Source of the DNA: Pseudomonas phage phi9_PA9
Direction: 5' to 3' (one strand)
Sequence record: PQ093904.1
DNA: 64,000 bases
The translations under genes were made by a program, and so were the position numbers. Positions within the stretch are counted from its first letter, which is position 1. Every line of letters begins with the position of its first letter. The notes beneath the pieces were generated by a model that worked only from the letters and a program-made list of their open reading frames with translations, made no database searches and was not told the DNA's origin. Below, in pieces: positions 46,871-47,201 of this stretch.

Positions 46871-47201
46871 TAGGAAATACCTCGGTAGATAGGGATGTTA
46901 AATAAGTAACATCCCGATTCTAATACTGCGACCCTGGTTCACTTCGGTGATAACGGTTAGGAGTAGGTTCTGTGAAGTAATCGACTAGTGAACTTAGTCT
47001 AGGTCGACCTATCACTACACGAGGATGATGGATCACTTAACCGAAAGGAGTTACTCAAAAGGTGACGTGTGATCAAAACTACAATGGATGGTAAAAGGTC
47101 CTAGTGCCAGAGCGCTACAGAGAAGAGCGGAGGTTAAGCTTTGTAGACGACGCTAGGATCGGGCCAGGCTCCGTTGGTGGTCCATTGTAAAAACTGATAT
47201 A
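46871..47201 (+). ncRNA. GC-rich, hairpin-dense untranslated region (candidate structured RNA / 3' UTR element)
   Basis: ~330 nt with no ORF of 60 aa or more in any frame. GC content is well above the neighbouring genes. It holds several perfect hairpins: GGGATGTT/AACATCCC, a TCAC-UUCG-GTGA tetraloop, the GGTCGACC palindrome and CGCT...AGCG. It ends at terminator 47202-47240. Confidence 0.35.

Follow-up and report, generated by a model that had tools for sequence, protein, structure and literature searches.

A modular structured RNA predicted in the 3' untranslated region of the chimallin gene of phiKZ-like Pseudomonas phages

Small RNAs derived from the 3' untranslated regions (3' UTRs) of messenger RNAs (mRNAs) have been described as candidates in phages, comparable cases being 3'UTR_PHIKZ298 of phiKZ and ncRNA1 and ncRNA2 of PAK_P3. 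Other described systems that partly resemble the element presented here are the RNAs ROOL, GOLLD and raiA, the K-turn, the group I introns and put of phage HK022, in which two adjacent hairpins in the nascent RNA upstream of a terminator bring about processive antitermination. The phages phiKZ and PhiPA3 are the models of nucleus formation, with the chimallin gene chmA as the best-studied gene, and we know of no cis-acting RNA signal defined for the handling of mRNA in the phage nucleus. The present analysis deals with the spacer 46871-47263 in a 64,000-nucleotide (nt) stretch of Pseudomonas phage phi9_PA9 (PQ093904.1), which separates chmA (PHIKZ054, upstream) from the non-virion RNA polymerase gene PHIKZ055 (downstream). 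The whole stretch is called the window, and coordinates refer to it unless another phage is named; those of PA1C, phiHQ, Psa21, Phabio, Viktualia and RP13 count along the locus sequences L001, L003, L004, L006, L008 and L160, respectively. On comparative evidence, the region 46876-47238 is judged to encode a genuine conserved structured RNA on the plus strand, better conserved than its flanking genes.

Like the small RNAs derived from 3' UTRs, this element lies between a stop codon and the own terminator of the mRNA and carries no early-promoter motif of its own, and a strong signal in the homologous PhiPA3 spacer was obtained by enhanced cross-linking and immunoprecipitation (eCLIP). It differs from them in its size (about 360 nt versus the usual 50-210), in its three domains with multi-way junctions and invariant loops, in the lack of an evident single-stranded seed and in the apparent exchange of its modules between phage genera. 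With ROOL, GOLLD and raiA it shares a large multi-domain fold, conserved junctions, a phage-borne location and recognition by comparative analysis. Unlike those families, the element has no Rfam match, is fixed to the chmA 3' UTR and not to tRNA neighbourhoods, and was found only in Pseudomonas chimalliviruses; it is also smaller than ROOL and GOLLD.

Conservation and fold of the spacer downstream of chmA

The spacer is present in 55 phage records. In the Pawinskivirus phages PA1C, PS119XW, HPP-Temi and HHBS36_1 it is 86-87% identical to the window, whereas the chimallin protein is only 48.6% identical. A comparison with PA1C per 100 nt revealed 79-92% identity at 46861-47256 and 42-69% in chmA and PHIKZ055, and no further island longer than 120 nt with more than 80% identity was found in 50 kilobases (kb) of PA1C.

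A consensus fold of 109 pairs in 16 helices was obtained on the plus strand with RNAalifold from 10 phages. The alignment folding energy was -118.3 kcal/mol on the plus strand and -75.7 kcal/mol on the minus strand (13 G-U pairs), and variable columns made up 13% of the stem positions versus 30% of the unpaired ones. In this fold 99.6% of the cells are paired, compared with 33-42% when the partners are slid, many single changes are compatible with G-U pairing and four cells are broken. Compensatory changes on both sides, the comparative check named in the original prediction, were found in 8 of the 109 pairs, a count that comes from about six sequence types, with most double changes on the one split between phiKZ-like and Pawinski-like phages and with a fold derived from the same sequences. 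Slid partners, used as the control for this count and for that of the core given below, yielded 0-1 double changes. The features of the fold are the following:

46881-47023, plus strand: domain A, four-way junction (RNAalifold consensus of 10 phages, pair counts)
46881-46884 / 47020-47023, plus strand: domain A helix P1, which closes P2/P2a, P3 and P4
46886-46889 / 46919-46922, plus strand: domain A helix P2, with hairpin P2a at 46892-46915
46924-46965, plus strand: domain A P3, with a UUCG loop
46972-47015, plus strand: domain A P4 (consensus fold)
47031-47074, plus strand: domain B, three-way junction of 44 nt (covariance model R1)
47082-47187, plus strand: domain C (consensus fold, pair counts)
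47082-47089 / 47180-47187, plus strand: domain C helix P6, which encloses the long arm and P8
47097-47160, plus strand: domain C long arm, with a K-turn-like internal loop
47107-47114, opposite ACGA at 47147-47150, plus strand: K-turn-like loop CCAGAGCG (sequence inspection)
47163-47178, plus strand: domain C hairpin P8 (consensus fold)

The compensatory changes of domain A affect P1, P2, P2a and P4, and those of domain C are located in P6 (A-U to G-C), at the base of the arm (U-A to G-C) and beside its loop (G-C to A-U). Besides the stems, several junctions and loops are conserved in sequence, namely UUAA, the CC-GAAA-GG hairpin, GGUAAAAGG and the invariant apical loops. The apical loop GCGGAG of the domain C arm could pair with the P8 loop CUCCGU, as judged by eye, both loops being invariant. 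Among the perfect hairpins proposed earlier for this region, GGGATGTTA/TAACATCCC (46892-46900 / 46907-46915) and TCAC-TTCG-GTGA (46939-46950) are real and conserved, whereas GGTCGACC and CGCT...AGCG are outside the conserved consensus fold, in which GGTCGA supplies the 3' strand of helix P4b and CTACAGAG is base-paired to CTTTGTAG.

Inspection of the sequence of the domain C arm revealed a K-turn-like pattern, with a CCA bulge and tandem G.A / A.G pairs between the helices 47101-47122 / 47139-47156. It has the same order as the K-turns of box C/D RNAs, T-box stem I and riboswitches: helix, 3-nt CCA bulge, tandem G.A / A.G and second helix. The pattern is canonical in the window, PA7, PA1C, PS119XW and PhiPA3. 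In contrast to the K-turn, the G.A pairs are lost in phiKZ, PA02, LC and KTN4, with A to U at position 2b in phiKZ proper, and in Temi, HHBS36 and phiHQ, with G to A at position 1b. We know of no L7Ae-type partner in the phage system. About eight substitutions around this loop (47096-47114, 47148 and 47158), accompanied by two compensating changes on the opposite strand, separate phiKZ, PA02, LC and KTN4 from the window, PA7 and PA1C, in phages that are otherwise about 97% identical; this may be a local hypervariable patch or a conversion tract.

The folding energy of the element corresponds to a z-score of -4.8 on the plus strand, with or without the terminator, and of -2.9 on the minus strand. 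Windows of 320 nt taken genome-wide had a mean z of -1.75 (standard deviation 1.45), a rough background obtained from mononucleotide shuffles with few replicates, and the element ranks within about the top 5% of these windows; its absolute folding energy is the lowest among all genome windows. The folding energy is thus suggestive but not decisive, and the decisive evidence is the comparative one.

Among the stretches of the window free of open reading frames (ORFs) of at least 70 amino acids (aa), 46871-47263 (393 nt) is the longest except for the two that contain group I introns, and its G+C content (0.45) is the highest of all (window 0.379, other gaps 0.26-0.43). The earlier description of the region as richer in G+C than the flanking genes is right with respect to the downstream gene (0.33-0.40) and the genome, and does not apply to chmA itself (0.43-0.52).

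Other sites of the window showed related properties. Windows of 320 nt at about 39681, 57601, 24321 and 11521 reach z values as low as or below that of the element (-4.9 to -5.9, rough estimates), and two ORF-free gaps near 11 kb, 10722-11024 and 11361-11591, are comparatively G+C-rich (0.40 and 0.43). These low-z windows and gaps may be sites of further structured RNAs. Shorter islands with more than 80% identity to PA1C, over a background of 64-72%, are found at 634-692, 22872-22900 (100% identical), 30475-30592 and 31277-31334, the third of them in an AT-rich ORF-free gap where PA1C annotates a minus-strand ORF of 32 aa. They may be promoters, terminators or small RNAs.

The three-way junction core and its mosaic surroundings

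In domain B, helix P5 (GAUCAC/GUGAUC) encloses UUAA, the CC-GAAA-GG hairpin, a single A, a GUUACU/GGUGAC hairpin and GU. The covariance model R1 of this domain was built from four phiKZ/Pawinski sequences only. It matched PhiPA3 (Miltoncavirus; 30.8 bits, E 2e-7), the metagenomic Phabio-like lineage L178-L180 (26 bits, E 4-6e-6) and the metagenomic phage L161 (16.4 bits, E 0.008-0.02), whose chimallin is 56% identical. All the matches fall within the spacer that follows chmA, shortly before the terminator, and the domain is single-copy in the window. In the domain B alignment 98.9% of the cells are paired and 8 of the 14 pairs show compensatory changes, a count that leans towards structure because the alignment was fitted to the model. 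A weak match at the expected place in Phabio (E about 1) and a three-way junction seen by eye in 201phi2-1, which R1 does not score, were not counted, and no R1 match was found in the spacers of the non-Pseudomonas chimalliviruses RAY, Goslar and RTH11. Since R1 finds the junction across lineages, the three-way junction is regarded as the conserved core, with domains A and C as peripheral.

Alignment by hand with PhiPA3 revealed that P1, P2, P2a and the outer P4 stem are kept in this phage, and that its P3 has the same shape with an entirely different sequence, a GAAA loop replacing UUCG. Its P5 is GAACCAC/GUGGUUC. The K-turn-like arm of PhiPA3 reads TCATTG-CCAGAGCG-CTTATC ... GATAAG-ACGAC-AATGA, so that both helices are changed and the loop is identical, and it sits inside P4 and not in domain C; P8 is absent.

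Most relatives lack the element. Spacer lengths are 76-128 nt among ten metagenomic lineages; Noxifer and D6 have 84-87 nt, RAY has 105 nt and Goslar 92 nt, so the short spacer is the default and the element is accessory, a cassette outside the basic layout of chmA, terminator and RNA polymerase gene. Psa21 differs from D6, with which it shares about 90% identity in the flanks, by a clean insertion of 345 nt between the stop codon and the terminator. The spacer of phiHQ (2693-3228) is chimeric, a whole RNA of a second type being joined to domains B and C and the terminator of the element described here (type 1). The junction is the first base of helix P5, which suggests that this recombination respected the boundaries of the RNA modules. 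Further long structured chmA 3' UTRs occur in 201phi2-1, Phabio and Viktualia. Together with D6/Psa21 and phiHQ, they lead us to view the chmA 3' UTR as a slot with a turnover of structured RNA modules, through gain, loss and recombination.

The sharing of type 1 by three genera of P. aeruginosa phages appears to be most readily accounted for by horizontal exchange between co-infecting phages, combined with selection that maintains the fold, because the element is 87% identical between genera whose chimallins are 49% identical and because sister lineages lack it. Co-infection and genetic exchange between phiKZ and PhiPA3 have been documented (review PMC13282480). No second copy of the element or of its modules was found in the window or in 50 kb of PA1C with nhmmer and pattern searches. 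A chimallin peptide scan of IMG/VR gave no match, and a search for the DNA pattern CACTTAACCN{3,6}AGGNGTNACTC in IMG/VR, metagenomes and GTDB genomes gave only PhiPA3 and matches that blastn confirmed to be due to chance; the pattern CATCCCGATTCNAAT was too unspecific to discriminate.

The occupation of this slot bears on a simpler explanation, that the fold, without a specific partner, gives generic 3'-end protection to the abundant chmA mRNA against RNase E or 3'-to-5' exonucleases. Unrelated structured 3' UTRs stand in the same place in Psa21, 201phi2-1, Phabio and Viktualia (z = -3.3 to -6.3), which suggests that the slot benefits from some structure, and the lowest absolute folding energy in the window also fits. 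Such protection as the whole function is nevertheless distinctly unlikely, since junction and loop sequences are conserved and not the stems alone, a specific three-way junction recurs across lineages with covarying stems, and the terminator hairpin alone suffices in most relatives.

The insert of Psa21 is a second, unrelated structured RNA (type 2), also without an Rfam match, which fills the chmA 3' UTR of that phage (4256-4690) and corresponds to the 5' half of the phiHQ spacer (2693-3000). Its core is also found in Ralstonia phage RP13 (about 2400-2570), where a tRNA-Leu gene follows it directly. One of its helices covaries (CCAGAT/ATCTGG, CCCAG/CTGGG, CTCGA/TCGAG), and its loop TTACGGT could pair with a downstream ACCGTA, a possible pseudoknot. 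A search with the type 2 pattern gave only Psa21 and one chance match inside a coding region. Within one metagenomic lineage, L178 and L179 differ by a 40-nt, hairpin-sized indel in the chmA 3' UTR (about 2915-2955).

Coding potential and known RNA families

As claimed in the original prediction, no ORF of 60 aa or more follows the stop codon at 46870, none being present between chmA and PHIKZ055. Short hypothetical proteins are annotated on the spacer in some GenBank records, and a 22-aa ORF (47088-47156) recurs in several phages, which would favour a small protein gene or a disrupted gene. This ORF has no Shine-Dalgarno sequence, is absent from PhiPA3, and in phiKZ shows changes in 5 of 7 residues without codon-position bias and with the RNA pairing kept. 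The spacers of close relatives differ by single-base indels that break the frame. The small proteins near this place in relatives (the PHABIO_83 family, 201phi2-1 gp106) have no similarity to the spacer, and their genes follow the terminator, so that no conserved gene disrupted in this phage was found at this position. A coding function is therefore extremely improbable.

The short hypothetical proteins annotated on the type 1 spacer in HPP-Temi, HHBS36_1, KEN51 and other records are likely to be spurious gene predictions, and so is gp057 of Psa21 (4341-4583, minus strand), whose ORF is split between frames in the phiHQ homologue. Phabio, Viktualia and two metagenomic lineages encode, after the chmA terminator and before the RNA polymerase gene, small proteins of 90-110 aa that form a family similar to PHABIO_83. 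This family is absent from L183 and L184, close kin of L182:

Phabio 4537-4809; Viktualia 4518-4850; L178 3078-3407; L182 3640-3960: PHABIO_83-like small protein

An Rfam scan had been proposed for the element. No family matched it when the whole window was compared with Rfam 15 (4227 models) at the gathering score, and a scan of 46700-47400 at E<=10 gave only noise (E 1.6-9.8) over the terminator or the next gene. The scans of eight related loci at E<=1 gave no match, and that of RP13 likewise found no family for the element. A tRNA or tmRNA was not detected by ARAGORN. Several other resemblances were tried and rejected: a T-box-like GGUGGU, a likeness to the 16S 3' end (UGGAUCAC), a 12/14 match between type 1 and type 2 sequences and a hammerhead-like reading of the three-way junction were near chance or not conserved in PhiPA3, and the GGA count was not enriched as would be expected of an RsmA or Hfq sponge.

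The lack of a group I core (P/Q/R/S) had been noted from the sequence and is borne out by the model Intron_gpI, which did not match the element at E<=10 although it found the two true introns of the window. The group I introns of the same genome share with the element a similar size and G+C content, many hairpins and the same gene cluster. They differ in that the element has no P/Q/R/S core and lies outside reading frames, and nhmmer found no similarity between them. These introns are located at 48618-48938 and 62845-63071 (80.4 and 81.1 bits with RF00028), the former just past an ORF ending at 48523, in the RNA polymerase gene cluster.

A mobile RNA that is selfish or decaying, for instance what is left of an intron or ribozyme, or else an undescribed self-cleaving or self-splicing ribozyme, would account for the presence/absence polymorphism, the mosaic modules, the identity between genera far above that of the flanking genes and the large ornate fold with invariant loops, and group I introns are nearby in the genome. 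We regard this explanation as highly doubtful. No group I or group II intron or ribozyme family matched at E<=10, and the element is outside genes, single-copy per genome and devoid of terminal repeats and target duplication; the chimallins end in ...Y-stop in 10 of the 10 phages compared, with or without the insert. Moreover, base pairing is maintained through the substitutions, a sign that the fold is still under selection. The suggestion of a degenerate intron or ribozyme remnant made in the original prediction is thus not supported, and that of a packaging signal found no support either. Its central claim of a structured untranslated RNA, neither gene nor intron, is upheld by conservation above that of the flanks, compensatory changes, strand asymmetry and the eCLIP peak of PhiPA3.

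Transcription and possible functions of the element

The locus belongs to a phiKZ-like P. aeruginosa jumbo phage; SL2 is 99.6% identical to the window over it, and the homologous region in the phiKZ genome is 47529-47904. The chimallin-like nature of the upstream gene was confirmed: its product is 99% identical to a protein that carries PF25677, and the annotation of the gene in phiKZ and SL2 is nuclear shell protein. PHIKZ055, which encodes an RNA polymerase beta subunit and is the first non-virion RNA polymerase gene, starts at 47264. The features that delimit the transcript are the following:

44990-46870, plus strand: chmA (chimallin / PHIKZ054) coding sequence, 626 aa, with the stop codon at 46868-46870 (ORF list)
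47196-47238, plus strand: intrinsic-terminator-like hairpin GAUAUAGCGGCUCC-UUCG-GGGGCCGCUUAUAUC, followed by UCC and U7 (sequence; putative function)
47253-47266, plus strand: PHIKZ055 Shine-Dalgarno sequence AGGAG (47253-47257) and ATG at 47264 (sequence)

The predicted terminator, previously placed at 47202-47240, was recovered as a hairpin with a 14-bp stem (47196-47209 / 47214-47228), a TTCG loop and a run of seven T (47232-47238). A simple terminator scanner missed it because the U run begins 3 nt past the stem. This terminator is common to all the relatives, whether or not they carry the element. The succession of chmA, terminator and RNA polymerase gene is ancient and holds also in Erwinia phage RAY, E. 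coli phage Goslar and Xanthomonas phage RTH11. An early-promoter-like TATATTAC is present at 44910, 75 nt upstream of chmA, and no phiKZ early-promoter motif was found between 46871 and 47264 in a scan for the early class, which argues that the element is made as part of the chmA transcript. The octamer TATATTAC has 10 sites in the window, 9 of them on the plus strand, and this total is not above chance (6.4 expected). In PA1C, the annotated start of the RNA polymerase gene (3418) seems to lie 34 nt past the actual one, since the ATG at 3384 aligns with 47264 of the window and carries the conserved Shine-Dalgarno sequence.

PHIKZ054 has been placed in a six-gene operon (Wicke et al. 2020, PMC8244752), and in the absence of a promoter-like motif in the spacer PHIKZ055 is probably reached by read-through. 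These data bear on the main rival explanation, a cis regulator of terminator read-through from chmA into the non-virion RNA polymerase genes, in which the nascent RNA, chiefly the adjacent hairpins of domain B, would act on the phage RNA polymerase or on terminator folding, in analogy to put-type processive antitermination or to an attenuator or riboswitch. As in put of HK022, the hairpins of domain B are adjacent, with one unpaired base between them, and are located upstream of a terminator that precedes essential genes; they differ in being closed by a third helix and in that the polymerases are phage multisubunit enzymes. The operon, the position of PHIKZ055 25 nt past the T run with no early-promoter motif in between, the conserved layout of the locus in Erwinia, E. 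coli and Xanthomonas phages and the location of the core motif upstream of the terminator, on the same transcript, in every lineage are all compatible with such a regulator, and the P8 loop GGCUCC could pair, by eye, with the 3' strand of the terminator. It is rated as unlikely, since 13 relatives manage with the terminator alone, no conserved, mutually exclusive antiterminator pairing was found and P8 is missing from PhiPA3, domain B and the terminator are separated by anything from about 20 nt (L161) to about 120 nt (window), and no likeness to an Rfam riboswitch, T-box or known antiterminator RNA was detected.

The explanation that we favour, with moderate confidence, is a stable, protein-bound, modular structured RNA derived from the 3' UTR, an accessory cassette built around a three-way junction core. 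It would be transcribed as the 3' untranslated part of the chmA mRNA and end at the conserved intrinsic terminator. Termination at 47238, possibly with trimming at the 5' side, would leave a nuclease-resistant folded RNA that would accumulate as a discrete species and serve as a platform for protein binding, with domains A and C flanking the core, varying by lineage and presumably swapped by recombination. In PhiPA3, eCLIP of ChmC gave coverage peaks between chmA and gp54 (Enustun et al., PMC11077065), a spacer that is the homologue of 46871-47263. ChmC, a nucleus-associated RNA-binding protein, is the sole candidate partner with experimental support, and its binding might alter the handling of the chmA transcript or of other phage RNAs.

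Several observations weigh against this explanation. The thermodynamic stability is only in about the top 5% of the genome windows, sequence diversity is low, one split carries most of the compensatory changes and the fold comes from the sequences that were counted. The K-turn consensus is broken in the seven phages named above. The eCLIP remark comes from PhiPA3, whose peripheral domains differ, and ChmC binds phage mRNAs broadly. The phiKZ transcriptome papers, based on differential RNA sequencing (dRNA-seq), Grad-seq and ONT-cappable-seq, list other non-coding RNA candidates and omit this one. Finally, the constant place in the chmA 3' UTR before the terminator fits a role in cis at least as well as one in trans. 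A stable small RNA, an mRNA stabiliser and a localisation signal, the options initially proposed, may be equally compatible with the evidence.

A bolder proposal, which we put forward tentatively and hold to be possible, is that the element is a dedicated RNA partner of the phage-nucleus machinery, belonging to an undescribed class of large modular RNAs with a three-way junction core that are exchanged between genera. One form of such a partner might be an element bound by ChmC that governs how the shell-protein mRNA is exported, locally translated or stabilised; another might be a put-like device reprogramming the phage RNA polymerase at the terminator that precedes the polymerase genes.

In the literature search the element was undescribed apart from one sentence on the PhiPA3 eCLIP. 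A non-coding RNA in a phage 3' UTR is of a known kind; new are the modular size, the three-way junction core, the location after chmA and the exchange between genera indicated by the comparison. The element addresses pending questions on phage-nucleus mRNA, namely how it leaves the shell, how it is preferentially translated and how shell protein and polymerase are kept in balance. It supplies a testable object, with coordinates, a fold, an RNA more conserved than chmA and an eCLIP signal on its homologue, together with a 44-nt core motif in at least six lineages. If the element is merely a stabiliser, the result is a modest one, a new phage RNA motif; if it is a dedicated partner of the nucleus machinery, it would be the first cis-acting RNA signal tied to the biology of the phage nucleus.

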